Source of the DNA: a virus
IMG/VR virus record: IMGVR_UViG_3300009503_000073
Strand: one strand, 5' to 3'
DNA: 33,164 nt
Shown here piece after piece: positions 1 to 15,126 of this stretch; within the stretch, counting starts at the first letter, position 1, and every line of letters starts with the position of its first letter. Made by a program: the position numbers and the translations under genes. The notes beneath the pieces are model-generated. The model was not told where the DNA came from. It was given only the letters and a program-made list of their open reading frames with translations, and did not search any database.

Positions 1-570
1 GAATTCTTAGAAGACGCCACATGGAACGTGCTTAGCAACGCCATAGCGAAGGCTGGCAAGGCGGTTGGGCAGAAAGAAACCGAGAAGATCATTGCCTTGT
101 ACGCTGGAATAGCCGACGGTGACCTGGCAACTGGCGCTGTACTTGCTGGAGGCGGCACGGTGATGAGCTGGACTAAACTGCTTTCGCTGTGGTATGCCAT
201 CAAAAGCGAGAAGTGGATGGCTAACGTGTTAGCGATTAACGACATGCAGATGGCTCAGCTCCTCAATGATGCGACCTTCACTAACGCGCAGTACCTGCAA
301 TCAGGCCAGACCGATGTTGAAGCTGGTGTTGTTTCAGGTGCTTTGGGCATGAAGATAGTTTCAAGCCCACTGGTGCCGAATGGGACAGCTTACGCTATTG
401 ATACGAGTGTGGCTTCGGTGATGCTGCTGCGAAGAGATGTGACTGTGCAGGATTGGGAAGACGTCAAGTCAGGCAAGTTCGGCGTCCGCGCAACCACACG
501 GTTTGGCCTTGGTATCCTACGCGCCAACGCAGTTGCCAAGATGACCAACATCAAGACCACGCTAACTTAA
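1..570 (+). CDS. Major capsid protein (HK97-like fold), 5'-truncated by the window edge
   Basis: Frame +1 is open from base 1 (EFLEDATWNVLSNAIAKAGKAVG...). C-terminal pattern GMKIVSSPLVPNGTAYAID...GVRATTRFGLGILRANAV resembles HK97-type MCP C-termini. Lies directly upstream of portal and neck genes. Confidence 0.85.
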   Translation, partial: EFLEDATWNVLSNAIAKAGKAVGQKETEKIIALYAGIADGDLATGAVLAGGGTVMSWTKLLSLWYAIKSEKWMANVLAINDMQMAQLLNDATFTNAQYLQSGQTDVEAGVVSGALGMKIVSSPLVPNGTAYAIDTSVASVMLLRRDVTVQDWEDVKSGKFGVRATTRFGLGILRANAVAKMTNIKTTLT

Positions 571-599
571 GCGCTGTAACACTGCGAGTATCTGTTCAT

Positions 600-612
600 T
601 TCCCCGTTTTTT
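600..612 (+). terminator. Putative T-rich terminator after the MCP gene
   Basis: TTCCCCGTTTTTT 30 nt after the MCP stop; the same 12-mer follows the last tail gene (10407-10418). Confidence 0.45.
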
Positions 613-633
613 GTTGTTTGAATCGTTTCGAGG

Positions 634-891
634 TTGAGCAGGTTGAGGAAGAGTCTGCAGGAAAAATACTTGGACCGCATGCATCTGGTTTTGCGTGAGC
701 TTAGCCGAAGGCCTCTTTCGCGCATTGAACTGCAGACACGTTTCATGCAGAAATTTGACTCGCCCTCAGCTTTTGAGGGCACGTTTCTGTTTCTCGTTAG
801 AAGTGGCAGAGTCCAGAAGAGCGGAACCGAGTACCGGTCGCCCTACAAAATCACGGAGCGAGGACAAAAACTTCTGGAGGCTCTGTCATGA
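634..891 (+). CDS. Small winged-helix DNA-binding protein
   Basis: 85 aa, TTG start; wing motif SPYKITERGQKLLEAL; ATGA overlap with the portal start. Confidence 0.7.
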   Translation: MSRLRKSLQEKYLDRMHLVLRELSRRPLSRIELQTRFMQKFDSPSAFEGTFLFLVRSGRVQKSGTEYRSPYKITERGQKLLEALS

Positions 892-2117
892 GTTCTGTCA
901 TTAAAAAGATTCGTGAAATTCTAACATATGCTCCAGTAGCTGGTCGCGCCTCACCTAACAGTCCAGTCTTCTTTGAGACCGCAGACATCCCCTTAGGAGA
1001 CGTCATGCAATTGTACGAGCGTGACCCAACCTGCAAATCTAGCGTAGACTTGCTGGCTGCAAGCACCGTGGGCATGGGCTTCTACACCACATGCGAGCAA
1101 GGACACGAGAAAGCCAAAGCTGCAGTCGACAGCTTCTGCGAAGAAGTAAACATTGACTGTCTCCTCAATGACATGGCTAAATCCTTGATTGCGTGCGGAA
1201 ACGATTTCTGGCTCAAGCTGATGCCTGAGCGGCTCTCTGATGTTCTGCGCATGCCCATAGACGTAGTTGAGCGAGTTCAATTGACCTCTGTTAAAGGGGT
1301 AAGGCTTCCCTACAAAGTCGAAGGATATAAGCTCCGTTCCAAATATCAAGCGAATACTACGAGCATCCTAAGCCCTGAGGCGGTGATTCATTGGCGCTTG
1401 AACTCATCTAACACAAGCAGCTTAGGTTTAGGACTGCTTCAGGTGCTAGTTCACACGTTGACGGTCGGGACTGATAAGCGTCCAGCTTACAGTTGGATGA
1501 AAGCCAAAATCGAACGCATCATGCCCAAGATTTTCGAGAAGTACGCAGGACCAGACGTGCTTGCGTACGTTGACAAGGCTGATGCTGCAACCATAAAACA
1601 GTTCGAATCAGCCATAAAGAATCGCCCTGAAGAGGGCGCTTGGCTATTCTACAATAAACCCTGTGAAGTCAAACCAGTCACAATTGACCCGAGGGCGCAA
1701 GGTTTTGTCTATTATATCGACCATATTGTGAACCAGTTCTATCTTGGGTGCGAAACGCCTTTGCCACGTCTGTTTAGCACTCCAGGCTTCACTGAGGCAA
1801 GCGCGAGAGCTGCTTTAGATTTGCAGGACATGCTCATTAGACCAGTTCAACGCTACATAAAGCGGCAAGTCGAGAGAGAAATCTTCAACCCCATCCTCAG
1901 GCAAAGCGGTTTTGACCCTGCTAAAGCTAAGGTGCGTTTGAACTGGGGAAGCCCTGAAACGCCTGAAATTGTTCCAGCCGACTTGATTCATGCTGCGCAG
2001 CTTGGGCTTATTCGTCCTGAAGAGTTTCGCAAGAATGCAGTCAAATTCGGCTGGGAACTTTGGGATGCTCCCGAAACGGAAGCGGGTTCTAATCAGTCTC
2101 AGGAGGCTAACACCTGA
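888..2117 (+). CDS. Portal protein
   Basis: 409 aa; portal-like SPEAVIHWRLN...GLGLLQ segment and PVQRYIKRQVEREIFNPIL...VRLNW C-terminal pattern; head-module context. Confidence 0.8.
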   Translation: MSSVIKKIREILTYAPVAGRASPNSPVFFETADIPLGDVMQLYERDPTCKSSVDLLAASTVGMGFYTTCEQGHEKAKAAVDSFCEEVNIDCLLNDMAKSLIACGNDFWLKLMPERLSDVLRMPIDVVERVQLTSVKGVRLPYKVEGYKLRSKYQANTTSILSPEAVIHWRLNSSNTSSLGLGLLQVLVHTLTVGTDKRPAYSWMKAKIERIMPKIFEKYAGPDVLAYVDKADAATIKQFESAIKNRPEEGAWLFYNKPCEVKPVTIDPRAQGFVYYIDHIVNQFYLGCETPLPRLFSTPGFTEASARAALDLQDMLIRPVQRYIKRQVEREIFNPILRQSGFDPAKAKVRLNWGSPETPEIVPADLIHAAQLGLIRPEEFRKNAVKFGWELWDAPETEAGSNQSQEANT

Positions 2118-2145
2118 TTTTCTCAACCGCGATGGAGGTGAAAGC

Positions 2146-2352
2146 ATGGGATTAAGCAACAGAGCACAAGCAGTTCTAGTTGGGTTAAGCGCTGGACTAG
2201 GCGCTTTCGGCACAGCGGCTGCAACAATTCCTGATTTTGTCCCTATCGAGTTCAAGGTTCCACTCGCCGTTATATCTTGGCTTGCAGGCATCGTTGGTTT
2301 CAGCATCAAAGAAGCACTAGGCGGCCAAGCTCCTTCTCAGAAAAATACATAG
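2146..2352 (+). CDS. Small two-TM membrane protein (holin-like topology)
   Basis: ATG at 2146 preceded by GGAGGTGA; 68 aa with two hydrophobic stretches (VLVGLSAGLGAFGTAAATI, VPLAVISWLAGIVGFSI). The ORF-track start at 1990 overlaps the portal and is unlikely. Confidence 0.65.
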   Translation: MGLSNRAQAVLVGLSAGLGAFGTAAATIPDFVPIEFKVPLAVISWLAGIVGFSIKEALGGQAPSQKNT

Positions 2353-2508
2353 AATAGTCTGGTAGCGGCATTGCCTCATTTTTTCAGTTGAATTGCAAGT
2401 TTTGACTTAAAGGAATAACACTTTTTTTGACATCTCTGTTTAGAAAATCTTTATTTCCCTGAATTGACTTCCCGGTCGGAACTTGTTTAATGTAGGTGAG
2501 GTGACAAG

Positions 2509-2640
2509 ATGCTGTCTCGTGATTGTGACGGTTGCGCCCTGCAGCTTTACGATTGTAAGCGCCGTTACGCCAAAGTCAAAGTCGGCGAGAAAGTGTATTG
2601 TCCCGACGGCACAGCACATCTAGTCGATACCGCTGACTAA
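2509..2640 (+). CDS. 43-aa Cys-rich, probably Zn-binding microprotein
   Basis: Read manually: MLSRDCDGCALQLYDCKRRYAKVKVGEKVYCPDGTAHLVDTAD; strong SD AGGTGAGGTGA upstream; CxxC...C...CPxG..H. Confidence 0.65.
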   Translation: MLSRDCDGCALQLYDCKRRYAKVKVGEKVYCPDGTAHLVDTAD

Positions 2641-2665
2641 TCGTTAAAACTGTTGTTTGCCAAGC

Positions 2666-2680
2666 AAAAACGTATATATC
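2666..2680 (+). promoter_or_regulatory. Putative archaeal BRE/TATA promoter
   Basis: AAAAACGTATATATC, an A-rich BRE-like run followed by TATATA, about 70-80 nt upstream of the Lys-rich micro-ORF. Confidence 0.4.
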
Positions 2681-2754
2681 GCTTGCAGAAAGCGGCTAAT
2701 GCTAGGCAAGGTTCATTCATTCGCGGCTGAAAGTCAGCAGGAGGGATGGAGCGG

Positions 2755-2811
2755 ATGCCTAAGAAGAAGAAAGAAGAGAAATCGAAAACTGAAGAAAAGA
2801 AAACTCAGTAA
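2755..2811 (+). CDS. 18-aa Lys/Glu-rich micro-ORF
   Basis: MPKKKKEEKSKTEEKKTQ, with an alternative in-frame ATG at 2746; preceded by GGAGGGA/GGAG purine tracts and followed by a poly-T tract. Confidence 0.4.
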   Translation: MPKKKKEEKSKTEEKKTQ

Positions 2812-2842
2812 TCCGTTTAGCTCATCTTAAACCCTGTAAAAT

Positions 2843-2866
2843 TTTAACTTTTCTTTTTCTTTTTTT
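2843..2866 (+). terminator. Oligo-T terminator
   Basis: TTTTAACTTTTCTTTTTCTTTTTTT downstream of the micro-ORF. Confidence 0.5.
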
Positions 2867-2960
2867 GTGGTTAACTTTTCATGCTGATTTTTCCGCGGGA
2901 TTGCTTATCAAACGCGCCTTTACATATCCGATTTAATAATGGTTTGGATGTTAGGCGCCC

Positions 2961-3266
2961 TTGGATTACTGCGCTGTTGCCAACGTGAAGGCTGTTCTGC
3001 AAATCAGCGAGGATAAGTGGGACAGCGAACTCTCCGAATGCATAACCAGCGCCAGCGCCCTTGTGGATGGTCTCTTGTCACGTGAAGGCTTAACCGTGCC
3101 TTCTGTTGTGCCGCAGGTTCTAGCTGATGCGACGAAGTATTTTGCTGCTTGGGATTTCAGACGCAGACGAGACCCTGTGGGCGCTGAAGCCTTCTGGACT
3201 GAAGCAAACCGCATATTAAGCGTCTACGTGGACGCTGAGAAAGAGCTGTACGTGGGGGTGGCTTAA
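2961..3266 (+). CDS. Head-tail connector/adaptor (gp6/gp15-like)
   Basis: 101 aa, N-terminal YCAVANVKAVL motif, helical; position before the gp10-like and tail genes. Confidence 0.7.
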   Translation: MDYCAVANVKAVLQISEDKWDSELSECITSASALVDGLLSREGLTVPSVVPQVLADATKYFAAWDFRRRRDPVGAEAFWTEANRILSVYVDAEKELYVGVA

Positions 3267-3268
3267 CC

Positions 3269-3700
3269 GTGCTTAGCTTCGAAGTCTCCACCAGCGGTCT
3301 TGAGTTTGATGACGTGGCTCAGAAGCTTAGCGGACCGATGCGTCAGAAGTTGGTTGAGAAGCTTGCGGACATTGCGTGGGCTTCGGCTTTCTGGAATGCT
3401 CCAACACAAACAGGCTACTTAGCCAGCACAGTAGTCAAGGAAGTCGGCGACGGTGAAGCGTCAATTAACGTTTTGGCTTCTTATGCCATGTACGTGGTGA
3501 AGGGCACAAGGCCTCACGTGATTAGACCCGTTAATGCTTCGGTTTTGGCTTTTGAGGCAGCAGACGGAAGATTAGTTTTCACTCATCTGGTTAATCATCC
3601 TGGTACGAAGCCTAACCCGTTCATTCAGAACGCGGTTGATGATGCACGTTGTAAAGCCGAGGAAACATTCGCCAGACTATGGCTGGAGATGCTTAGCTAA
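3269..3700 (+). CDS. HK97 gp10-like neck/tail-completion protein
   Basis: APTQTGYLAST...YAMYVVKGTRPHVIRP...VNHPGTKPNPFIQNA is the typical gp10-family pattern. Confidence 0.85.
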   Translation: MLSFEVSTSGLEFDDVAQKLSGPMRQKLVEKLADIAWASAFWNAPTQTGYLASTVVKEVGDGEASINVLASYAMYVVKGTRPHVIRPVNASVLAFEAADGRLVFTHLVNHPGTKPNPFIQNAVDDARCKAEETFARLWLEMLS

Positions 3701-4122
3701 TGGGCTTCTACACTGCATACAAGGACGTCTTCGACGCGGTCAAGACTGCCATCGAAACTAAAAGCTCCATCAAGGCTGTGTTGCTTGGCGAACAGTTCAC
3801 TTACGATTCGCTACCCAAAGCAGTCATAAACGCCATGCCCTCTGGAATTTCACAAGGCACACTCGGCGACATGTTGGAAGTCAAGGTCAACTTCAGCGTC
3901 ATTCTGGTCATTAACGAGAATGAGCCGAAGGACTGGTTCCAAGACATAATCTCAGTAATGGCAGATGTCGTCGACGCTGTTTTAGCTGACCGAACCTTGG
4001 GCGGAAAAGCAGCTGACTGCATTCCTGTGAGTTTTGCTCCGGGTGAAATCAAGTTTGAGAACAAACTGTTCTATGGCGGAGAAACCCGCTTCCAAGCCAT
4101 CATCTATCATCCAAGTAACTAA
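3700..4122 (+). CDS. Probable tail terminator
   Basis: 140 aa, TAATG coupling, position between the gp10-like gene and the tail tube; alpha/beta pattern. Confidence 0.6.
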   Translation: MGFYTAYKDVFDAVKTAIETKSSIKAVLLGEQFTYDSLPKAVINAMPSGISQGTLGDMLEVKVNFSVILVINENEPKDWFQDIISVMADVVDAVLADRTLGGKAADCIPVSFAPGEIKFENKLFYGGETRFQAIIYHPSN

Positions 4123-4136
4123 AGGAGGAAAAGAAA

Positions 4137-4529
4137 TTGAGTACACCAATAGTTGGAAGAAACGGTGTCGTCAAGAAAGCTGGAACGGCAATCGGATATG
4201 CGAAAGGCGTCTCCGTAAGCATAGGCGTCGAACTTGTGAAAGACTACGCTTTAAACAGCAACAAGCCCGCCATAGTTGAAGACGGCAACCAGAGCTACAA
4301 AGTTTCTGTGGAAAGCATGTACGTGGACAACACGTATGCGCAGGTGGTTTTGACTGGTGACCCCGTGGACATTGAGTTGGATCCCGCTGGCGCAGCTACA
4401 GGCAAGCCCAAGGTGACGGTGAAGAATGTGGTTTTCACCAACTGGAAATTGGATCAGAAGCAAACTGGTGTTGTTATGCAGTCGATGGAAGGCGAAGGCG
4501 ACGACCTGCAACTAGGAACCATAGCATAA
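4137..4529 (+). CDS. Major tail (tube) protein
   Basis: 130 aa, beta-rich, SD GGAGG with TTG start; precedes chaperone and tape measure genes. Confidence 0.7.
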   Translation: MSTPIVGRNGVVKKAGTAIGYAKGVSVSIGVELVKDYALNSNKPAIVEDGNQSYKVSVESMYVDNTYAQVVLTGDPVDIELDPAGAATGKPKVTVKNVVFTNWKLDQKQTGVVMQSMEGEGDDLQLGTIA

Positions 4530-4539
4530 CGTGAGGGCC

Positions 4540-4974
4540 ATGACTGAAACTGAAGAGCAGAAAGTTGCCGAGTACAAGCAGAAACTCGAAGAACACGAAA
4601 TAGAGGATGCTGAAGCGAAAGCTGAAATCGCCAAGAAATTCGATGCAAAAGCTCTGGCGGAATCCACTCGCAAAATCCAAGTGTTAGTTGACCCTGACCT
4701 TGGAGAAATCCGATACGGGCTGCTTTCTCAAAGCGAGTTTGCAGCTCTGCATCTTGAAGCTATCCAAAGTGACAACGAGAAAGCCGAACGTTTAATCCAT
4801 GCCATGCTTCAAAAAGCTGACCCAGCCCTGACTTGGGAAGACTATCAAGCCGTACCCTTCGACGTTAGAGGCGCATTGACGCTGGTGATGTCGCAGTTGT
4901 TTACCCGTTTTTTGCACGTCCAACAGCGGATTGGATCGACGCCACTCCACAAGCCCAAATCATCGGCATCATAG
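4540..4974 (+). CDS. Tail assembly chaperone (gpG-like, short form)
   Basis: Acidic 144-aa ORF (ATG 4540) between tail tube and tape measure; contains the slippery heptamer T TTT TTG at 4908-4914. Confidence 0.75.
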   Translation: MTETEEQKVAEYKQKLEEHEIEDAEAKAEIAKKFDAKALAESTRKIQVLVDPDLGEIRYGLLSQSEFAALHLEAIQSDNEKAERLIHAMLQKADPALTWEDYQAVPFDVRGALTLVMSQLFTRFLHVQQRIGSTPLHKPKSSAS

Positions 4975-5069
4975 CACACGAGTACGGTTACACCCTCGAC
5001 TACATCAGCTCCCTAACACCGTTCCAGCTATCGTTCCTAGTCAGTTGGCTGCGTTGGCGCCACAAATAG
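4908..5069 (+). CDS. -1 frame extension of the tail chaperone (gpGT-like C-terminus)
   Basis: The -1 frame is open to TAG 5067-5069 with no ATG: FFARPTADWIDATPQAQIIGIIAHEYGYTLDYISSLTPFQLSFLVSWLRWRHK, resembling gpT-type C-termini. Confidence 0.75.
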   Translation, partial: FFARPTADWIDATPQAQIIGIIAHEYGYTLDYISSLTPFQLSFLVSWLRWRHK

Positions 5070-5079
5070 GCGAAATCGT

Positions 5080-6567
5080 ATGAGCTCCAACATAAACGTG
5101 ACAATCAAAGCAACCGATGAGGCAAGCGAAGTTGTAGCGGAAGCTGGACGCAACATAACCGAAAGCATGCAAGACGTGGAATTAGCAGGAAAACAAGTAA
5201 CCGAGTCGCAGAGAAAGACAGATGCGAGCGCCAAGGACCTTGCATTGGGTTTCAGCGGATTAGCTACGTCTGCTTTTTCACTCTACTGTGCCTATGACCG
5301 AGTCCAGAACGCAGAGCTAAGCGTCGACAAAGCTACTTTGGGGTTGCAGCGAAGCCAACAGGCGCTTACTAAAACTCAGCAGGAAGCCGAGAAAGCTGGA
5401 CGGGACTTGGAGAAAGCGCAAGTTGACCTAGAACAGGCAATCGAACAGTACGGCGACGGTAGCAAGGAAGCGGAAGCAGCACAGCGAAAACTCGACGACG
5501 CCACACAGAAATACACAAACTCGTCTAATCAGCTGCAAATTGCTCAAGACGCATTGAGGGTCTCTGAAGAACGAGTTAAACAAGCAGAAGAAAACAAAAC
5601 TCAAGCCATGATTAGCGGTTCACTACAGGTTATACCTACTGTCATAACAATGGTTGGCGGTTTAAGCACGATAACTGGAAGCTGGACAGCTATCCAAGGA
5701 GCCGCAACCACTGCAACCGGAGCATTGAGTGGCGCTTTGAATTTTCTTGCGGCTAACCCGATTGTGGCTGTTGTCACGGCCATAGGCTTGATTGTTGCTG
5801 CTTTAATTGCTGCCTATAATGCTTGTCCACCTTTCCGTGATGCCATAAACGCCATTGGACAAGTCCTCGGAGGCGCCTTAAGCGCCGCGATTAACGCGGT
5901 CTATAACGGGTTGAAGTGGCTTTGGGACAACGTGCTGGTTCCGCTTGGGAAATTCGTGGCATCAGTATTCATCGGTTACTGGAACGGACTGGTTGCTGTT
6001 TGGAATGTGCTTTCGTCTGCCATAGGCGCAGTTTACAATGGGCTGAAATGGCTCTGGGACAATGTTCTGGTGCCTCTTGGCAACTTTGTTGCCGGCGCCT
6101 TGCTGGGTGCTTGGAATGCTTTTGCTGGTGGTTTGAAGTGGGCCTATGACACATTCATCAAGCCAGTTGTCGATGCGTTAACATGGGCTTATAATAACAT
6201 CCTCAAGCCCATTGGCGATTTCTTCAGCGGAGTCGGCAATGCTCTTGGCGGTTTAGGGAACGCTATCAGCGGAGGCTTAGGCAGCATAGGCAAGATGCTG
6301 GGTTTAGCTGAAGGGGGAATAGTCACCAGTCCGACCGTTGCCCTAATCGGCGAGACAGGACCTGAAGTCGTCGTCCCACTCGACAAACTGTCAAGCAGTT
6401 CCAGCGTTGGTTCTCAGACGCTGGTTTTGGCTCCTACATTCAACTTTCCAGAAGGTAGCGTAAGCCAGAGTCAGGAACCGAGAGAATTCGCTGAAGCTGT
6501 TTACGAGCATCTTAGCAGGATTGTGCGTTCCGACTTGAAGGCTCAGACGTTCTTTGTGCCGAGGTAA
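5080..6567 (+). CDS. Tape measure protein
   Basis: 495 aa; N-terminal INVTIKATDEAS, coiled-coil region, Ala/Gly-rich hydrophobic repeats with periodic W/F/Y, C-terminal LAEGGIVTSPTVALIGETGPEVVVPL motif. Confidence 0.92.
   Translation: MSSNINVTIKATDEASEVVAEAGRNITESMQDVELAGKQVTESQRKTDASAKDLALGFSGLATSAFSLYCAYDRVQNAELSVDKATLGLQRSQQALTKTQQEAEKAGRDLEKAQVDLEQAIEQYGDGSKEAEAAQRKLDDATQKYTNSSNQLQIAQDALRVSEERVKQAEENKTQAMISGSLQVIPTVITMVGGLSTITGSWTAIQGAATTATGALSGALNFLAANPIVAVVTAIGLIVAALIAAYNACPPFRDAINAIGQVLGGALSAAINAVYNGLKWLWDNVLVPLGKFVASVFIGYWNGLVAVWNVLSSAIGAVYNGLKWLWDNVLVPLGNFVAGALLGAWNAFAGGLKWAYDTFIKPVVDALTWAYNNILKPIGDFFSGVGNALGGLGNAISGGLGSIGKMLGLAEGGIVTSPTVALIGETGPEVVVPLDKLSSSSSVGSQTLVLAPTFNFPEGSVSQSQEPREFAEAVYEHLSRIVRSDLKAQTFFVPR
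5896..6081 (+). repeat. Internal duplication in the tape measure gene (2 x 54 nt, 132-nt period)
   Basis: AVYNGLKWLWDNVLVPLG is encoded at 5896-5949 and 6028-6081, with 12 of 18 codons differing synonymously. Confidence 0.85.
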
Positions 6568-6574
6568 CCCAAAA

Positions 6575-7375
6575 ATGACGGTGTCACTTGGAGGACTAAA
6601 CCTTGGCGTCGTGAATGGCTTCAGCTTCTCTGACCCGAAGAGGCTGGAAGACATTGATTTGCCAGCAGCCCGAGGAAGCAGCAGTCAAGACTTAGGCGAA
6701 CAAGCTTCAACCATAGAGCTGACTGGAATATTGCGTGAACCAAGCAGGTTCGATGACTTCAAGCAGCTTCAAAGAGCAAAGCGCTTGGGAAACAGTTTAA
6801 AACTGGACTCAGACGCCGTTTCCACCGTTGTCTTTGTTAAAGAGGTCAGACTTGCCAAAGTTGGCGTGAACATTCTCAGATACAGCCTTTCACTAAAGGA
6901 GAGTCTGTTTAAGCTGGTTAACTCATGTGACAGCCTCTTGGATTGGTCAACTCAAACGGTGGATGCAGTTGTTGGCGTCGTTTCAGGTTCACCGGTTCCG
7001 CTTGAAGGTGCAGCATGCATAAAAGTCAGTCACGACGCAGAGGCTGCCGAAGAAGTCAACCTAACCTATGACCCGATAGACGTTATAGACCTCGAGGATT
7101 TTGATTGGCTAAGCTTCGCATGGTTAATGAGCGATGTCTCGGGGATTAGCGGTGCCACCATAAAGGTTAGTGAAGGCACAAACAATGCTACATACGATTT
7201 CTCAGCACTGATAGCAGAAGCTGAAAAGTGGTTAAGGCTTCGAATCCATAAAACCTCTTTCATAAACCATGGCGCTCTCGATTGGGGACAGATTGACAAG
7301 ATAAAGTTCGCTGTAACTAAGGCTCAGGCTCAAAACTACTTTTTCGCTGTTGATGATGTGGGAGGTTTTGAGTGA
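6575..7375 (+). CDS. Distal tail (Dit-like) protein with a C-terminal beta-sandwich, possibly carbohydrate-binding, domain
   Basis: Follows the TMP; N-terminal DIDLPAARGSSSQDLGEQASTIELTG; C-terminal WLRLRIHKTSF...LDWGQIDKIKF is CBM-like. ATG 6575 chosen as start. Confidence 0.55.
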   Translation: MTVSLGGLNLGVVNGFSFSDPKRLEDIDLPAARGSSSQDLGEQASTIELTGILREPSRFDDFKQLQRAKRLGNSLKLDSDAVSTVVFVKEVRLAKVGVNILRYSLSLKESLFKLVNSCDSLLDWSTQTVDAVVGVVSGSPVPLEGAACIKVSHDAEAAEEVNLTYDPIDVIDLEDFDWLSFAWLMSDVSGISGATIKVSEGTNNATYDFSALIAEAEKWLRLRIHKTSFINHGALDWGQIDKIKFAVTKAQAQNYFFAVDDVGGFE

Positions 7376-9468
7376 TGGGTAGTTACAAGAACGTTCTGTT
7401 CAAGGACTCCTTCATTGGAACCGCTGGTTATCCACCTGATAGGGGGAAGTGGTTTGCCTTTCTCACACGTGAGAACACTAGCGTAAAATTCACTGACGGT
7501 GCCATTGAGCCGACTGTGAATGGTTGCCGCTTTGTTGCTGCTGTGGATTCTAACGGCTGGGGTGGCTTAAACCTGATGAGCAGAGCCGAATTCAAGGTGC
7601 CCTTCAAAGTTCGAGTAATCATAAAGCCGATCACGTTTGGCTTCTACTTCTATCTTTTGTCGCCTGATATTCGTGATGGTCACTTTTTGGGAACCGAAGT
7701 CTACGGCATGTGGGTTGCCATACTCTACGGCACAGTTGCGGACAACAAATTCCGGTTTGTCGTCAGCCAAGACTACTCGCCAAAGGCCAAATCGTCAGAG
7801 GCAACTTGGAGACTAAACACTGAGTACATAGTCGAAATGGAAATAACACCGTATGCTTCTAACTCTCGCAAATTTAACGTGGATTTGACTGTTAAGCTGG
7901 TTTCTGACGGTTCGTTGGTTTGGCGGGTTAGCGACTGGTGTGACCAGAGCTTATCAGCAACTTTGCGTTGCGCTTTTAGTGCACGTGCAGACGCTTCAGG
8001 GGCAATCGAGTTCTACGCTAAATCACTGCTTGTCTTTGGAAACCAGAGTCGAAAAGCAAAGGCAATCGTAAGTGCAGTGACAGGTAATGATAAGCGGGTT
8101 ATCACTGATGATGTCATAGACTTCAGGGTCGTTCTCCGTGACGGCAGTCACCCTCAGGCTTCTTTAACGATTAAGAATGAGGGCAACAAGTACGACGAGC
8201 TCAGTGTCAAATCGGAAATTGAGATCAGAGCGGGCACAGAGGCTATTCTCTACTTGCTTTTCCGAGGCTACATCGACGCTCCCGAGAGGACTTATCCGCC
8301 GTCTCGGCTTAAGGTTGAGAGTGGCAAAGGCTATGCTAAACGCTTAGACTTCAGAGAAGCCTACAACAAAACGTACACGAACAAGACATGCGGATTTATA
8401 GTCAAAGACTTAATCAAGACCTATTTTGACGGCGTCTTTTGGTATGACAACGTCTTAGACGGCATAGTCATCTCTGCAGAATACAACGCTGCCCCAGTTT
8501 CAAAGATAATCAAGGAGCTTGCAGACGTCAATGTTTTCGTCTGGGGCGTAGACTTCAACAAAACCGTCTACTTCTACCCATTCAGCCTCGCACGCAGCCA
8601 AAGCAGCATACCGTTCAAGAGCAAAAGCGACCAGTTCAACATCAGCAACCGAGACATCGACGAAGTCGTAAACTACGTGCATCAGGTGGGCAAGACTGTT
8701 TCTGGCTTGCCCTACGACTACACGGCGCATGATGCGACTAGCGAAGCTAACTTTTGGCGACGTGACAAGACGTTCAAGGACGTAAGCCTGTCATCTCAGG
8801 CTGCAACTCAAGCCAAAGCCGAAGGCTTGCTGCAGAAGTACAAGGAGCTAACCAAGGAAATTGCGCTTGAAACCAAGAACATCGTGCCCATCGACCTGTA
8901 CTGCATGGCAACCATAACCAACACAGAAGTTGGCTTAAACGAGTATAACGGCGAAGTCAAGAGCGTAGAGTTCACCTACTCGGCACGAGGTGTCAGGACC
9001 ACCGTTTTGTTCCAGAATCGTGGCTTCAAGCTTGCGGATGCTTTGGCTGCTTATCAGGAGGCTTTGTCGGCTAAGGATTCAGGCTTAAACAACGCTGGCA
9101 CGGGAACAGACGGTGAAGAGGAGCAGCCGGAGGAAGAATTTGGCTTCATAACCATCAACCTTGCAGACGGCTACGTCCAGAGTTTGGAGCAGGCGCTTCT
9201 CTCAGACAGCATACTCTTCGATCCAATAGAGCTAACACGTTTCGAAGACGAGGTTTTGTGTAATCTTGCTCCTCAGGCCTCTCTTTTGGAAGAGCGAAGG
9301 CAGCTTGAGTTCTGCATGACCGAGTCGCTCTACTTGAACCATGGCGGGACAAAGCAGGTTGGCGAAGTCTGCGTTTATCTTGAAACTCATCTTCGGAGCA
9401 TGAATGAGAATTATGCTGGAGCTGATGTTCCAGCTTTCGATGAGGTTTTGGAGGTAACCAATGAGTGA
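7372..9468 (+). CDS. Tail tip/baseplate hub protein with an N-terminal beta-rich insertion
   Basis: 698 aa; hub-like segment IIKELADVNVFVWGVDFNKTVYF...IDEVVNYVHQVG...AKAEGLLQKYK; acidic C-terminus; GTGA overlap with the upstream gene. Confidence 0.65.
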   Translation: MMGSYKNVLFKDSFIGTAGYPPDRGKWFAFLTRENTSVKFTDGAIEPTVNGCRFVAAVDSNGWGGLNLMSRAEFKVPFKVRVIIKPITFGFYFYLLSPDIRDGHFLGTEVYGMWVAILYGTVADNKFRFVVSQDYSPKAKSSEATWRLNTEYIVEMEITPYASNSRKFNVDLTVKLVSDGSLVWRVSDWCDQSLSATLRCAFSARADASGAIEFYAKSLLVFGNQSRKAKAIVSAVTGNDKRVITDDVIDFRVVLRDGSHPQASLTIKNEGNKYDELSVKSEIEIRAGTEAILYLLFRGYIDAPERTYPPSRLKVESGKGYAKRLDFREAYNKTYTNKTCGFIVKDLIKTYFDGVFWYDNVLDGIVISAEYNAAPVSKIIKELADVNVFVWGVDFNKTVYFYPFSLARSQSSIPFKSKSDQFNISNRDIDEVVNYVHQVGKTVSGLPYDYTAHDATSEANFWRRDKTFKDVSLSSQAATQAKAEGLLQKYKELTKEIALETKNIVPIDLYCMATITNTEVGLNEYNGEVKSVEFTYSARGVRTTVLFQNRGFKLADALAAYQEALSAKDSGLNNAGTGTDGEEEQPEEEFGFITINLADGYVQSLEQALLSDSILFDPIELTRFEDEVLCNLAPQASLLEERRQLEFCMTESLYLNHGGTKQVGEVCVYLETHLRSMNENYAGADVPAFDEVLEVTNE

Positions 9469-9477
9469 GGATGAACT

Positions 9478-9729
9478 ATGCCAGTTGAAATCGTGAGAGG
9501 ACAAGTTGGAAGGGAGAACGTTTGGAACGTGGGGCAAGAAAGTGGCTTCATAGCGTACATGCGGGGTAGCATAGGCGACGCCCCATTAAGGGAAGAGGCG
9601 TTGAGTTTTGGAGATGCAAGGATGCTGAGCGATTCCTACGGCTTGGTTGAGATTTTGCTTTACAGTGAAGGAAAGATTGGGGAGGATGTGCTCAGTCTTT
9701 CCGAGTCAACAACAATCACGAACACGTAA
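9478..9729 (+). CDS. Hypothetical tail-associated protein
   Basis: 83-aa acidic ORF within the tail operon. Confidence 0.55.
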   Translation: MPVEIVRGQVGRENVWNVGQESGFIAYMRGSIGDAPLREEALSFGDARMLSDSYGLVEILLYSEGKIGEDVLSLSESTTITNT

Positions 9730-9748
9730 AGGGAGGTGGAAAAAGCAA

Positions 9749-10402
9749 ATGGATTTGCCAAGAAGACCGCTGACAATTGCGGAGTACAACGTCTTGAAGC
9801 GGAGTATCTGCCTGTCAAAACAGAAAATCAAAGACGTCTTCAAGCGCAGAAACACTTTCGGCGATGTCGTTACCATAACAGACGAAATCAGAGTTTACGA
9901 GGGCAAGAAACTCAGGTTCGCAACCAAAGGTCACATCGTCAACCAAGGTTTAACTCACCTGATTAACTTGTTGTCACCGACTGCTTTAGCTTACAGCTCA
10001 GGGTTGCATGGGACGTCCTATCAATGGACTTCCAAGACGACGTACATGCGACTCGGCACAGGCGGGAACGTTACTCAGGGAACCACGACTGGATTAACAA
10101 CTCCTGTCGGGGCAGCCCCTGACTCCCAAGCTGGAGTTACATCTTCTCCTGGTGGCGGCACTTATCGCATAGCATGGACTGCAACGTGGAATGCCGGTTC
10201 GTTGACGGCTATAACAGTTTCAGAAATTGGCCTGTTCCTTGACTTGGTAACTAACTTGCAGGGCTTTGGTTGGACGTACGGTGGCGGCGGCACAGCCTTG
10301 TTCAGTCGCCTAAGCGCTGCAGATGGCGATTTCACGGCTTTCGTGGTTAACACAAGTGTGCCTTTGACGATTGAGTGGCGGTTGACCTTCACTTTCGCAT
10401 AG
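9749..10402 (+). CDS. Tail fibre/collar-associated protein (DUF3751-like pattern)
   Basis: ATG 9749 with SD GGAGGTGG; IVNQGLTHLINL...MRLGTG...TATWNAG...SEIGLF...LFSRL...LTIEWRLTF pattern seen in tail-collar/fibre anchoring proteins. Confidence 0.55.
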   Translation: MDLPRRPLTIAEYNVLKRSICLSKQKIKDVFKRRNTFGDVVTITDEIRVYEGKKLRFATKGHIVNQGLTHLINLLSPTALAYSSGLHGTSYQWTSKTTYMRLGTGGNVTQGTTTGLTTPVGAAPDSQAGVTSSPGGGTYRIAWTATWNAGSLTAITVSEIGLFLDLVTNLQGFGWTYGGGGTALFSRLSAADGDFTAFVVNTSVPLTIEWRLTFTFA

Positions 10403-10407
10403 TTTGT

Positions 10408-10423
10408 TCCCCGTTTTTGGGGA
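10408..10423 (+). terminator. Hairpin at the end of the tail operon
   Basis: TCCCC-GTTTTT-GGGGA immediately after stop 10402. Confidence 0.45.
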
Positions 10424-10456
10424 TTTCGCAGTCACGATGAGGGGAGTTGAGGAAAA

Positions 10457-10654
10457 ATGGAGAGACGGAACATGGAAAAAGTTAGAAATTACGTTAAGTC
10501 AGCGTACTTGCGCAGGAAATGGCAAGCCATCTGGGAAAAGGTCGGGAAACGAATCTTAGCTTTGCCTGAGCAGACGCAAGAGGACTTGCTGCAGGACATC
10601 AGCGAAGCTGTTGAAAGTCGCATCGCCACCATGGAGAGAGCTAATCGTGAGTAA
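10457..10654 (+). CDS. Hypothetical small helical protein
   Basis: 65 aa, SD GAGG/GGAG upstream, coupled to the next gene. Confidence 0.65.
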   Translation: MERRNMEKVRNYVKSAYLRRKWQAIWEKVGKRILALPEQTQEDLLQDISEAVESRIATMERANRE

Positions 10655-11081
10655 GGCGGTGTTGAAGGCTTTGGAGCAGGTTAAGCCAGGAGACTTGATC
10701 TGTGTGGATTGGCTGGATGCTAGCCGAGGCAAAATCGAAACCGTCCGAGAGCTCCGAGAAGTGGGCGTTCCAGGAGCCGTCATAGACAGCCCCGTCAAGA
10801 GCTACGGCGTATTCATTGGATTATTCGGCAAGAGAAGCAAGCACATCGTCATGGTTGCAAGCCTCTGGGTGTTCACCGCTGTAGCCGACTATGGCCAAGT
10901 GGACACGACTATCATTCCTGTGGGCACGGTTGAGAACGTGCACGTCATCCAGTCTGGAATTCTGGACGTGGAGCGTGTTCGGCTTTGTCAAGCGGCTTTC
11001 ATGATGGGACGCTGCCATCACTACCTTAGGCGTTTTCAGATTAAGGGCAGAACCTTCGAGGTGAAAAGAGACGCTAGATAA
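10647..11081 (+). CDS. Hypothetical protein with an Sm/SH3-like beta-barrel pattern
   Basis: GTG 10647 overlaps the previous stop; GDLICVDWLDAS...SYGVFIG...TTIIPVGTVENV pattern common in viral small-barrel proteins. Confidence 0.6.
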   Translation: MSKAVLKALEQVKPGDLICVDWLDASRGKIETVRELREVGVPGAVIDSPVKSYGVFIGLFGKRSKHIVMVASLWVFTAVADYGQVDTTIIPVGTVENVHVIQSGILDVERVRLCQAAFMMGRCHHYLRRFQIKGRTFEVKRDAR

Positions 11082-11118
11082 ACTAAGACAATTCATCAGA
11101 GAACGCTTCACTCGGGTT

Positions 11119-11394
11119 ATGCTGGTTTCCGAAGGCACCCCTGAGAGCATACCAGCTGATACTACAAGGACAAGCAGGACTCGGTCAAGAAGGTTCAGGC
11201 GTGTTACTGTTCCGCCTTCTGAACGTTTTGTCTGGGGCATGGTCGGCTTAATCATCGCCTTGATAGGCGCCATCATCTTGGAAGGGATGTACTTGGTTTT
11301 GACTAGTGGCAAGGTAAGCATGGAGTTGCTTGCTGTCATTTCTGGACTTGTGGGCAGCTTGACGACTTGCGTGGTCATGGGGAAGAGAACATGA
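11119..11394 (+). CDS. Two-TM membrane protein
   Basis: Hydrophobic segments FVWGMVGLIIALIGAIILEGMYLVL and LLAVISGLVGSLTTCVVM; the frame is open upstream to 11065. Confidence 0.65.
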   Translation: MLVSEGTPESIPADTTRTSRTRSRRFRRVTVPPSERFVWGMVGLIIALIGAIILEGMYLVLTSGKVSMELLAVISGLVGSLTTCVVMGKRT

Positions 11395-11690
11395 GAAGCT
11401 TCGAAGTTAGAGCAGCATTCGAGAAGGTCTTCAAGAAACTTGACATTATAGATGCCAAAGTAAGCGCTATGCCCCAAGTACAGGTTCAGGTGTCCGAAAA
11501 GTTCCTGCCTACCCTGAACGCTCTCACCAAACTGGGCAAGCCAGCCACAAGCTCCGACATAGCACAGATTACAGGCAGAAACCGGGCGACGGAAAGTCAG
11601 ATTCTCAACGAACTTGCAGGTCGAGGAGTCGTGATTAAGGCAAGAAAGAGTCGCAAAATTCTTTTCTCATCAAGGAGGAGTCAGGCGTGA
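11391..11690 (+). CDS. Winged-helix transcription regulator (TrmB/ArsR-like)
   Basis: ATGA overlap at 11391; PATSSDIAQITGRNRATESQILNELAGRGVV HTH. Confidence 0.75.
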   Translation: MRSFEVRAAFEKVFKKLDIIDAKVSAMPQVQVQVSEKFLPTLNALTKLGKPATSSDIAQITGRNRATESQILNELAGRGVVIKARKSRKILFSSRRSQA

Positions 11691-11776
11691 TTTGGCTTGT
11701 TTGGGTCTTAACTTGGCTGGGCGGATTCCTATTCGGTTTTTCTGTGGGTTACTGGTTGGTGGGTAAGCGGAAATGA
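11687..11776 (+). CDS. 29-aa single-TM microprotein
   Basis: Read manually: MIWLVWVLTWLGGFLFGFSVGYWLVGKRK; SD GGAGGAG; GTGA overlap upstream and ATGA overlap with the terminase small subunit start. Confidence 0.65.
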   Translation: MIWLVWVLTWLGGFLFGFSVGYWLVGKRK

Positions 11777-12201
11777 CGAAGGGTAAGCCTTGGACTGTTG
11801 AAGAGGAAAAGCAGCTGGAGCAGATGCTGCGTGAAAACAGGTCAGTTAGGGCTATTGCTAAAGCGCTTGGGAAAACTCGTGATTGCGTACGCATGAAGAT
11901 AGCGCGTCTTGGGTTAGAAGTTGTTGTTCAGGCTAAATCAGAGCGAACAACAACTACCAGTTTAAAGCTGCCGACCGAGTTGCCCAGCCTTGAAGAAGCG
12001 TTGAAAACGTTAAGTGCAGCGATGAAGGCTTTGGAGACTCCTGGTTTGGATCAGGCTGAGGTTTTGCGTTTGCGCAGCATCATTCAAGCCGTGAAAATCT
12101 ACAATGAGCTCTTTCCCAAGTATGTGGATATTCGGGGTTTTGAAGCTGAAGTTATGGAGCTGAAGAAAAAACTTGATGACGAGAGGGACAAGAAGGGCTA
12201 G
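11773..12201 (+). CDS. Probable terminase small subunit (N-terminal Myb/SANT-like HTH)
   Basis: KPWTVEEEKQLEQML...VRAIAKALGKTRDCVRMKIARLGL; directly upstream of and overlapping TerL. Confidence 0.6.
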   Translation: MTKGKPWTVEEEKQLEQMLRENRSVRAIAKALGKTRDCVRMKIARLGLEVVVQAKSERTTTTSLKLPTELPSLEEALKTLSAAMKALETPGLDQAEVLRLRSIIQAVKIYNELFPKYVDIRGFEAEVMELKKKLDDERDKKG

Positions 12202-13687
12202 AACGTGGCATAAGGCGGACTATGACCTGCAACGCCAACAGCTAAGAGAGGGTGCCAAGGTTCTGGACGAGTCTAGGAAGGCGGCTGTTGAACAGGTTAG
12301 GGGCGACACTGCTAGGTTCTTCAGAGACGTCTGCAAGCTGACGCCTTTCTGGTATCAGCTTGAGCTGGCGCAGTTGTACCGTGAGAACCAGTTTTTGGCT
12401 GTGCGTTGGCCACGTCAAACGGGTAAGAGCACGTCTATTGGGGCTTTGCTTTTGCAGGATGCCTACGAGAACCCTGACCTCTACATAGGTTTTATCGGTC
12501 CAAGCTGGCGCCAAACCAAGCTCAACATCAGGCGAGTAGCCAGCTTCTGCCGAAACCTTCCAGCTCAAGATGTTCGTGTGCAGAAGACAAGAATCAGCTT
12601 CTCCAACGGTTCAATCATCGAGGCGTTTCCGAACAATCCTGATACGGTGAGGGGAAACACGTTTCACCGTTTGTACTGGGACGAATGCGGATTCACACCC
12701 AACGATGAAGACTTGTACGATGCCATTCTTTTCACGTTGGGAACAACCAACGGCAAGCTAATTGCCAGCAGTACGCCATTTAATAGTGATTCTTTGTTTT
12801 GGAAGATGTGCAATCACCGCGATTATTCGGATTTTGCTAGGCATCACTTCACGTATGAACGGGCTTTGGCGCCTAATGGTCCCTTGAGTCCTGAGATGGT
12901 TACGCGGATTAAGCGGCAGTTTGGCGATGACCCAGCACGATGGCGACGCGAAATGGAAGCCGAATGGGCAGAAGATGAAGATGTTTGGCTGGCGCAGAGC
13001 CTCATCGTTTCTTGTGTGGGCACTGCTAAGAATTGTGGGGAAGACTTGCAAGAGTTTAATCCTGAAGCAAGTTATGAAGGCGAGTTCTTTGGCGGCTTAG
13101 ACCTTGCACAGACACGGGATTACTGTGTGTTTGCTGTGGTTGAGCGGGTTAATGATAGGCTTTTGCTTAGGCATCTGAAGGTGTTTTCGCAGCCGACTAA
13201 GTATACTCATGTGTTAGGCTACATCAAAGCCTTGCAGGACCGTTGGGGCGGGTTTGAGAAAATCCGTGTCGACTTTACACGTGAAGGTCCAAGCATCATT
13301 AGTGACATGGAGAATGCTGGCATAAACAATGCTGAAGGCGTCAACTTTAGTGTGCCCCGCAAGAGTGAGATGGCTTCGCTGTTGAAGCAGCGGATGATGG
13401 ATCAACGGTTCTTTTATCCGCTTTTGACTTGGGAGAAGCCTTACCGCGGGGACATCTGTAGTGAATTGAATGTGGAGCGTTATGAGCTGCGCAGAGACGG
13501 AGCCGTCGGTTTTAGTCATCCAAACGGCACGCATGACGACGTGTTCTGGAGTTTGGCGCTTGCATGTTATGCGACTGTGACTATGGGTCCTGAACCCTTC
13601 TTATCAGTTGTGCCAAGGATTGCTAACCGATTGAGCAAAATCAGGAAGCAGTTGGTGAGGCGCAAAATGTTGGGGGATACGCATTGA
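12173..13687 (+). CDS. terL: Terminase large subunit
   Basis: Walker A RWPRQTGKST, Walker B LYWDE, ASSTP coupling motif, RNaseH-like nuclease GGLDLA...HDDVFWSLALA. Confidence 0.95.
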   Translation: MMTRGTRRARTWHKADYDLQRQQLREGAKVLDESRKAAVEQVRGDTARFFRDVCKLTPFWYQLELAQLYRENQFLAVRWPRQTGKSTSIGALLLQDAYENPDLYIGFIGPSWRQTKLNIRRVASFCRNLPAQDVRVQKTRISFSNGSIIEAFPNNPDTVRGNTFHRLYWDECGFTPNDEDLYDAILFTLGTTNGKLIASSTPFNSDSLFWKMCNHRDYSDFARHHFTYERALAPNGPLSPEMVTRIKRQFGDDPARWRREMEAEWAEDEDVWLAQSLIVSCVGTAKNCGEDLQEFNPEASYEGEFFGGLDLAQTRDYCVFAVVERVNDRLLLRHLKVFSQPTKYTHVLGYIKALQDRWGGFEKIRVDFTREGPSIISDMENAGINNAEGVNFSVPRKSEMASLLKQRMMDQRFFYPLLTWEKPYRGDICSELNVERYELRRDGAVGFSHPNGTHDDVFWSLALACYATVTMGPEPFLSVVPRIANRLSKIRKQLVRRKMLGDTH

Positions 13688-15126
13688 GGAACAGAAACAA
13701 CTACTTTAGAGTGAGAAGGGTTTGCCGAACCTACGACCGAACGCAGGGCAAGTTCAGCTTCAACATTTCTTACGAAACCACGGTGAAGCTTACGCCACGA
13801 GCTTTGGTTGTGGCTGAAGCGTTTGGGTTAGGTGTTGACCAAGCCCAGAAATTCACCGTTCTAAACACTGAGCTGATGATTGCTCCAACCGACATCGTCT
13901 ACATCACAGGCGACAGTGGTAGCGGAAAATCTGTTTTACTGCGGGCGTTGCGCAAAGACTTGGGTGAGGAGGCTGTGGATTTATCCGAGGTTGCAATCAA
14001 TGTGGATAAGCCTCTTATCGAGACAGTTGGCAGAACAGTCGAGGAAGGCCTGGAGCTTCTGAGCAAGGTTGGCTTGAATGACGCGTTTCTTTTCCTACGT
14101 ACATACAGCCAGCTAAGTGACGGTCAGAAGTACCGTTACCGAATAGCCAAGCTCATCGAAAGCGGCAAGCAGTGGTGGCTTATGGACGAGTTCGCCGCTT
14201 GCTTGGACAGGGACACAGCTAAGATTATTGCGTTTAACCTGCAGAAAATCGCTCGGCAACAGGGCAAAGCCGTGATAGCCGCCACAACCCACAGCGACCT
14301 GCAAGAGGACTTAAAGCCCAGTGTGCTTGTGCGGAAACGGTTTGGAGAAGAAATCCAGATCAGCTATTACCCAAACGAAGCAGCGAAAGAATGCAGTCTC
14401 GTCCGAGAGATGAAGGCTGAACAAGGAACCATCAACGACTGGCGCAAGCTCAGCAACTTCCATTACCGAGGACACAAGGTTGCTGCACCCCGAAAGATAT
14501 TCCGCTTGGTAAGAGGCGAGGAGCTATGTGGTGTTATTGTTTACACGTATCCTCCCCCTAATTGTTTCGGAAGGCGAATGGTGTTGCCTCGAATGTCTAT
14601 CCGAGAAATAAACAATCAACTGAGCATCATAAACCGGGTAGTTATCCATCCAAAATACAGAACCATTGGGTTAGGCTCCATGATAATTCGGGAGACATTG
14701 CCTTTGGTGGGCACACCATACGTGGAGATGATTGCAGTTATGGCAAAGTATTCACCTTTTGCGGAGAAGGCAGGTATGCGTAAGGTTGCGGAGCAGCGAA
14801 CCGTTGAAAGTGTTTCGGCTGTTTCTGGGGTGCTTTTGGATTTAGGGTTTGACCTGCAACTCTTAGGCAGCGAACGCTATGTTACTGACAAACTTGTAAG
14901 CCTGTCCTCCTCACAACTTGAGAAATTGAAAGAAACGTTTGCTAAATGCGTGCACCCTCGATTCAAGAAGGAGTTTGAGAGTAGCAGACATCAACCTTTT
15001 GGAAAAACAGCAGATTACGTTAGAAGCGTTAAGAAATCAGATAAAGGAAAGCTGGCTAAGCTTATTAAAGTGGCTGGAATGCTCTTGCAAACAAAAGTCT
15101 ATCTAATATGGAAAGAAAAGGAATAA
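13684..15126 (+). CDS. ABC-type ATPase fused to a GNAT acetyltransferase
   Basis: Walker A GDSGSGKS, ABC signature LSDGQKYR, Walker B WLMDEF, H-loop ATTHSD; C-terminal GNAT acetyl-CoA motif RVVIHPKYRTIGLG. No TM segments. Confidence 0.85.
   Translation: MRNRNNYFRVRRVCRTYDRTQGKFSFNISYETTVKLTPRALVVAEAFGLGVDQAQKFTVLNTELMIAPTDIVYITGDSGSGKSVLLRALRKDLGEEAVDLSEVAINVDKPLIETVGRTVEEGLELLSKVGLNDAFLFLRTYSQLSDGQKYRYRIAKLIESGKQWWLMDEFAACLDRDTAKIIAFNLQKIARQQGKAVIAATTHSDLQEDLKPSVLVRKRFGEEIQISYYPNEAAKECSLVREMKAEQGTINDWRKLSNFHYRGHKVAAPRKIFRLVRGEELCGVIVYTYPPPNCFGRRMVLPRMSIREINNQLSIINRVVIHPKYRTIGLGSMIIRETLPLVGTPYVEMIAVMAKYSPFAEKAGMRKVAEQRTVESVSAVSGVLLDLGFDLQLLGSERYVTDKLVSLSSSQLEKLKETFAKCVHPRFKKEFESSRHQPFGKTADYVRSVKKSDKGKLAKLIKVAGMLLQTKVYLIWKEKE

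Follow-up and report, generated by a model that had tools for sequence, protein, structure and literature searches.

In the siphovirus-like virus of Bathyarchaeia analysed here, the ORF at 4540-4974 in all likelihood encodes the tail assembly chaperone and is decoded into two proteins: a short form (G), read in the 0 frame, and a long form (GT), made by a -1 frameshift near the 3' end of that ORF. The DNA is a stretch of 33,164 nucleotides from IMG/VR record IMGVR_UViG_3300009503_000073, referred to at its full length as the window, and the tail-module genes discussed below lie on its + strand. A programmed -1 frameshift in an archaeal-virus tail assembly chaperone had been proposed from the letters of this DNA (the sequence-only reading), and comparison of 46 related loci supports the proposal. 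Judged from that comparison, the G/GT-type frameshift is very probably real, strongly conserved and unannotated, with mechanism and function assigned by analogy to phage systems.

Locus anatomy and gene neighbourhood

The 0-frame chaperone ORF (4540-4974) starts with the ATG at 4540, ends with the TAG at 4972-4974 and encodes 144 aa. Its codons CGT (4906), TTT (4909) and TTG (4912) place the slippery heptamer T_TTT_TTG (4908-4914) in the X_XXY_YYZ phase required for a tandem -1 slip, so that the phasing put forward in the sequence-only reading agrees with the codon register. The -1 frame is open from 4869 to the TAG at 5067-5069, and the extension that it would add past the heptamer (T; 4914-5069) consists of 51 codons and this stop. 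The whole -1 ORF of the window contains no ATG, as had been claimed, and GTG and TTG are also missing, which leaves the extension devoid of a start codon of its own. The ATG of the tape measure gene lies at 5080, after a gap of 10 nt, in keeping with the earlier description of a -1 frame that reaches 5069 just ahead of that gene. A shift at the heptamer would join 125 codons to 51, and the two predicted products, of 144 and 176 aa, match the sizes first suggested (144 and approximately 176 aa).

The genes that surround this ORF follow the order of a siphovirus tail module: head-tail connector (2961-3266; PF05135), tail completion or Neck1 protein (3269-3700; phrog_5), an ORF without family evidence (3700-4122), tail tube, chaperone ORF, tape measure, and distal tail proteins with PHROG matches (6554-7375 and 7372-9468). 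The 130-aa tail tube protein, encoded directly upstream of the chaperone gene (4137-4529), was assigned through PF18906 (Phage_tube_2; E 9.4e-6, with 25.9 bits just below the 27-bit cut-off) and through phrog_290, a minor tail protein family (E 6.7e-7). The 495-aa tape measure protein (5080-6567) matches phrog_58 and about 15 further tape-measure PHROGs, with a best tape-measure E value of 2.5e-21. The ORF at 4540-4974 thus occupies the exact position of the tail assembly chaperone, between the tube and tape measure genes where G/GT is located, and the same order is found in related loci, in which a long ORF begins at or just past the -1 stop. Elsewhere in the window, an ORF of the capsid family (PF05065) lies at the left edge (1-570) and the terminase large subunit (12173-13687) comes after the tail module, an arrangement that makes the gene order permuted with respect to the usual one. 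The ORF at 888-2117 (409 aa) has no family match, and a megablast comparison of positions 1-15000 with a phage collection gave no near matches.

Family searches do not place G or T by sequence. Neither matches a Pfam or PHROG family at E <= 0.01, no chaperone family is matched at E <= 1 by any of 21 G homologues or 17 T tails, and a profile search of the PDB returned nothing relevant. The description of the extension as "gpT-like" in the sequence-only reading is consequently upheld by position and arrangement, but not by sequence family, since neither part matches a chaperone family of PHROG or of Pfam, where these comprise the Phage_TAC families, lambda gpG and Phage_tail_T. The AlphaFold model of the T extension is a confident four-helix domain (pLDDT 85), while that of G has a mean pLDDT of 71, with values of 78-92 for the core (residues 40-120). 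Searched against 48,161 solved chains, the G model finds YqbN (3klu_A), presumably an XkdN-like tail chaperone, as a weak best match (Z 5.3, 93 residues aligned, rmsd 5.7); in a Foldseek search, the HK97 chaperone (2ob9_A) appears weakly at rank 35 (E 2.5). Several of its top matches in BFVD are named tail assembly chaperone (E 0.014-0.3, again weak), among them the chaperone of Halobacterium virus ChaoS9 (E 0.037). The G model is consistent with a chaperone fold, its resemblance to known chaperones being weak and not conclusive. The 51-aa model of T, searched by fold on its own, gives only weak matches (E ~1-5).

Taken alone, this single sequence goes modestly beyond chance and is weak evidence, the case being carried by comparison. 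We estimate the odds of 51 open codons arising by chance at ~49% GC as ~0.09, and an in-phase X_XXY_YYZ motif is expected about once per 256 codons; the +1 frame of the window is also open, for 55 codons. This +1 frame includes a candidate gene at 4931-5083 (50 codons, TTG start, extending past the tape-measure start), which was rejected because it is not conserved: +1 tails vary from 1 to 55 codons across loci. Runs of six T (T6) occur 38 times in the window, under half of the 81.5 expected from dinucleotide-preserving shuffles, and the run at 4908 is the only one on the coding strand within a supported ORF of the 15-kb structural module. This depletion fits the avoidance of slippery runs in coding sequence.

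Conservation of the heptamer and of the -1 frame

Relatives of the locus were gathered via the tape measure protein, via a search of viral, genomic and metagenomic contigs with 21 aligned chaperones, and from Bathyarchaeia genomes searched with a protein that bears the T domain. With copies of the window's own contig excluded, the census contains 46 loci, of which 44, all distinct in nucleotide sequence, were fully analysed; all 46 share ancestry, and the counts that follow are not independent events. The nearest record is a 12.6-kb IMG/VR fragment (G001), whose matched stretch of 1,501 bp is 100% identical to the window.

Conservation of the heptamer and of the -1 ORF in homologues had been proposed as a check, and both are kept in all 46 loci. 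The heptamer is T_TTT_TTN in 45 loci and A_AAT_TTA in one, and it is in phase in every case. Among the 44 fully analysed loci, T_TTT_TTA is the most frequent form (20), followed by T_TTT_TTG (16), T_TTT_TTT (5), T_TTT_TTC (2) and A_AAT_TTA (1); the two loci beyond the 44, one rearranged (L033) and one with a decayed gene (L049), both carry T_TTT_TTR. Since all four bases are found at the last position of the heptamer, and the second codon consequently specifies Leu or Phe, the constraint acts on the bases and not on the encoded residue. The codon preceding the heptamer points in the same direction: in loci with T_TTT_TTN it may be CGT, CTT, GGT, AGT, AAT or GAT, thus specifying six amino acids, and its third base is always T, while elsewhere in the same ORFs T occupies 21% of third positions and Phe is encoded by TTT and TTC at similar frequencies (60 vs 57). 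The sole switch of heptamer among the 46 loci is found at the homologous place in L039 (852-858, on G381:C98), where A_AAT_TTA is preceded by CTA, a codon that ends in A. The upstream base of the putative shift site thus covaries with the heptamer as the X_XXY_YYZ rule predicts.

The -1 tail measures 51-68 aa, is conserved in every complete locus, and carries the shared motif W[IV]..AQ..GLIAHEYGY.L[DE]YI..LTPFQ..FL..WL.W, whereas 0-frame tails can be as short as 4 codons or as long as 32. No potential start codon appears in the -1 ORF of any locus before codon +18, by which point the conserved W and the AQ..G residues have been passed. Four loci, namely the window, L004, L005 and L020, contain no ATG, GTG or TTG in this ORF at all, and in the other loci the position of the first candidate is not conserved. 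The -1 ORF that overlaps G is hence conserved as a protein and has no initiation signal, the arrangement that characterizes G/GT genes. In most loci the -1 stop is adjacent to the tape-measure start or overlaps it, and 1-base overlaps of the ATGA type are seen at L009:3521-3524, L010:3524-3527, L015:2530-2533 and L017:2518-2521, among others; such overlaps suggest translational coupling between GT termination and tape-measure initiation. The rearranged locus differs from this description: in L033 (846-1104), after the heptamer and ~8 normal T-domain codons, the -1 frame enters a sequence resembling a tyrosine recombinase C-terminus, in the region of the HTFRH...LGH motif. The assembly may be chimeric here, or an element may have entered the chaperone gene.

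Selection follows the frame change. Pairwise divergence at codon positions 1/2/3, computed over 24 non-redundant loci, is.367 /.251 /.581 in the 0 frame for the 60 codons upstream of the heptamer and.339 /.250 /.524 in the -1 frame downstream of it, indicating that coding periodicity shifts back by one base at the heptamer. The -1 frame keeps this pattern both where it overlaps the 0-frame tail (.382 /.324 /.499) and beyond the 0-frame stop (.313 /.210 /.536), and within the overlap the synonymous share of differing codons is highest in the -1 frame (.235), followed by the 0 frame (.149) and the +1 frame (.099). Compared across loci in this manner, the candidate frameshift gene lies far beyond chance.

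Proposed frameshifting and alternative explanations

By the proposed mechanism, the majority of ribosomes would remain in the 0 frame up to the TAG at 4972 and release the 144-aa G protein, while a minority would slip back by one base at U_UUU_UUG (4908-4914). In the P site, tRNA-Phe would move from UUU to UUU, and in the A site tRNA-Leu would re-pair its first two anticodon bases on UUU. The shifted ribosomes would then resume at GCA (4914), read 51 more codons and stop at UAG (5067), generating the 176-aa GT protein, whose additional part is modeled as a small four-helix domain. If G and GT behave as do gpG and gpGT of lambda, the part that they share would form a coat on the tape measure protein and the T domain would bring in the tail tube protein, with both forms absent from the finished virion.

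A stimulatory RNA structure, which the sequence-only reading proposed to seek at 4915-4990, was not found: the fold of 4915-5000 is indistinguishable from shuffled sequences (z = 0.08), and RNAalifold predicts 0 pairs in an alignment of 13 diverse loci. The six bases ahead of the heptamer, inspected as a potential Shine-Dalgarno-like stimulator, differ between clades. Because no conserved stimulatory structure lies downstream, the heptamer alone would be expected to suffice for the slip, as in lambda and P2.

Slippage by the polymerase, in place of the ribosome, could generate the same fusion if one U were added within the T6 run, so that some mRNAs, with a run of seven, encode GT in frame. 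A homopolymer run is indeed found at the site in 45 of the 46 loci, and it is the run itself, not the encoded residue, that is conserved. Known cases of productive transcriptional slippage, however, involve runs of ~8-9 or more bases, and the run here is short, with six bases in the window, seven where the Z base or an adjacent base is also T, and never more than seven in the 44 distinct loci. In addition, every locus retains the X_XXY_YYZ phase, to which a slipping polymerase would be indifferent, and the A_AAT_TTA of L039 is not a homopolymer, yet represents a canonical ribosomal heptamer with a matching upstream base. Strict phasing, a run of no more than 6-7 bases and the switch in L039 together favour a ribosomal shift and make transcriptional slippage improbable. 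The existence of two separate genes, in which the -1 ORF would produce a small independent protein from a non-canonical start and the heptamer would be incidental, is less probable still. Gene callers do predict proteins of 36-62 aa from internal TTG or ATG codons in other contigs, but four loci (the window, L004, L005 and L020) offer no such codon, and in the others the first candidate is found at codon +18 or later, past conserved residues and at a position that is itself not conserved; moreover, an invariant in-phase heptamer with a covarying upstream base would be left without explanation.

The last alternative, by which a sequencing or assembly indel would have split a single in-frame ORF of 176 aa, draws on the fact that homopolymers are prone to such errors, and it is the least credible of the three and all but refuted. 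The same two-frame arrangement recurs in each of the 44 distinct loci, which stem from metagenomes, MAGs and viral contigs that are independent of one another, with 0-frame tails that stay open for 4-32 codons. Homologues that encode the extension in frame had been named beforehand as the mark of an indel, and a search of 5.8 billion proteins, in which lengths of 79-252 aa were covered, returned 32 homologues of G, all of 85-157 aa and none with an in-frame form of ~176 aa. When 1.84 billion representatives were searched with a T-domain profile, 30 proteins were recovered, most of them being fragments of 36-62 aa called from internal codons. Databases thus carry G-only proteins of 126-157 aa and orphan T fragments of 36-62 aa, as anticipated by the statement in the sequence-only reading that automatic annotation misses the frameshift.

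Two proteins that do have a T domain in frame with an upstream part could be taken to favour an indel. The first (P0037, 180 aa) is a singleton from a contig of 740 bp. Its reading frame changes ~15 codons ahead of the T6 run, which is intact, and the protein is probably an error or a mutant. The other (P0048, 169 aa) joins G-like and T-like parts in one frame and is encoded on 4 contigs of up to 133 kb, drawn from the 3 sources NCBI, JGI and Logan. Weak similarity to the G profile (hhalign E 3.9e-4) is seen in its N-terminal part and a match to the T profile (E 2.9e-7) in its C-terminal part, while its junction lacks the FL or FF that a T6 run would encode. It appears, from these matches, that the two domains are naturally fused in frame in a distant lineage, possibly one that lost the frameshift, and P0048 thereby supports the notion that G and T belong in one polypeptide. 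L044, the readable locus closest to this protein, retains T_TTT_TTA and two frames. The DNA of P0048 and P0037 was not found in the viral contigs searched, nor was that of P0048 in two samples of 401 Bathyarchaeia genomes each. A ribosomal -1 frameshift in a single chaperone gene hence remains the preferred explanation.

Host, significance and relation to known systems

The archaeal host named in the sequence-only reading is supported by cellular genomes. When 185,579 prokaryote species were scanned, each represented by one genome, five true matches emerged, all in Bathyarchaeia MAGs and on contigs of up to 197 kb, and more copies lie on Bathyarchaeia contigs of 1.4 and 2.3 Mb. A sixth match in that scan, of 21 residues in a deltaproteobacterial MAG, was taken as chance and does not figure among the loci counted here. 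Three of the host genomes encode ribosomal protein S8e, which is archaeal/eukaryotic, on contigs other than those of the provirus. Individual Bathyarchaeia genomes (G002, with C3 twice, C4 and C6, as well as G117, G564 and G381) contain two to four copies of the T domain, implying that each carries several proviruses, or remnants, of a related kind. Internal stops in G002:C6 and in L049 (G590:C34) suggest that these copies have decayed. We know of no cultured pair of host and virus for this group.

This kind of frameshift has long been known in phages and has already been predicted for other archaeal viruses; no new mechanism is involved. What changes is how an entire group of Bathyarchaeia viruses and proviruses is annotated, since the predicted 176-aa product is missing from databases, and the near-universal frameshift of tail chaperones is extended, if the present reading holds, to viruses of an uncultured and globally abundant archaeal class within Thermoproteota. 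A study of Bathyarchaeia virus diversity makes no mention of frameshifting (PMC10848311), and a survey of proviruses lists chaperones without frameshifts (PMC11705971). The 44 natural variants of a site that is of the structure-free U_UUU_UUN type in all but one could also provide test material for studies of -1 frameshifting by archaeal ribosomes. To our knowledge, experimental data on such frameshifting are almost absent.

The G/GT frameshift of lambda is conserved in long-tailed dsDNA phages (Levin 1993; Xu, Hendrix & Duda 2004; reviewed by Atkins et al. 2016, PMC5009743). In systems of this type, as defined by Xu, Hendrix & Duda (2004), the two proteins occur at a fixed, low GT:G ratio, tail assembly depends on both, and neither is present in virions. 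The present locus resembles it in its location between the tube and tape measure genes, in an in-phase X_XXY_YYZ heptamer near the 3' end, in a -1 ORF that lacks a start and ends at the beginning of the tape measure gene, and in short and long products, here predicted, with a common N-terminus. It differs in that its host is an archaeon and that its predicted proteins show no detectable resemblance in sequence to the families of lambda G and T (no Pfam match). The shift sites also differ, being G_GGA_AAG in lambda and U_UUU_UUG here.

A closer parallel in terms of the site is offered by gpE and gpE+E' of phage P2, which shift at TTTTTTG without a downstream structure (PMC3091744, citing Christie 2002 and Xu 2004), as the sequence-only reading had stated of the heptamer. 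The heptamer is identical, both lack downstream RNA structure, and both genes precede that of the tape measure. P2, in contrast, is a contractile-tailed phage of bacteria with no detected sequence relationship to the present virus, and its products measure 91 and 142 aa, as compared to the 144 and 176 aa predicted here.

Within archaea, -1 frameshifts in g/gt have been predicted for the haloarchaeal siphoviruses HVTV-1 and HCTV-1/-2/-5 (Pietila 2013; Sencilo 2013; in PMC5009743). These are likewise archaeal tailed viruses with a chaperone arranged as two ORFs, known in both cases from prediction, but their hosts belong to Halobacteriota and not to Thermoproteota, and the only link found between the two groups is the weak structural match to the ChaoS9 chaperone mentioned above. 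It is conceivable, though rather unlikely, that tailed viruses of Bathyarchaeia have settled on a structure-free U_UUU_UUN site, as opposed to the G_GGA_AAC or A_AAA_AAC of haloarchaeal viruses, and that at least one lineage, represented by P0048, has abandoned recoding and makes the fused protein only. If so, the preference for U_UUU_UUN would mean that slippage of tRNA-Phe is unusually easy on these ribosomes, perhaps through the wyosine state of archaeal tRNA-Phe, a modification that has been linked to U-rich sites (PMC5009743), and a lineage with the fused form alone would contradict the rule derived from lambda by which a large excess of G over GT is essential.
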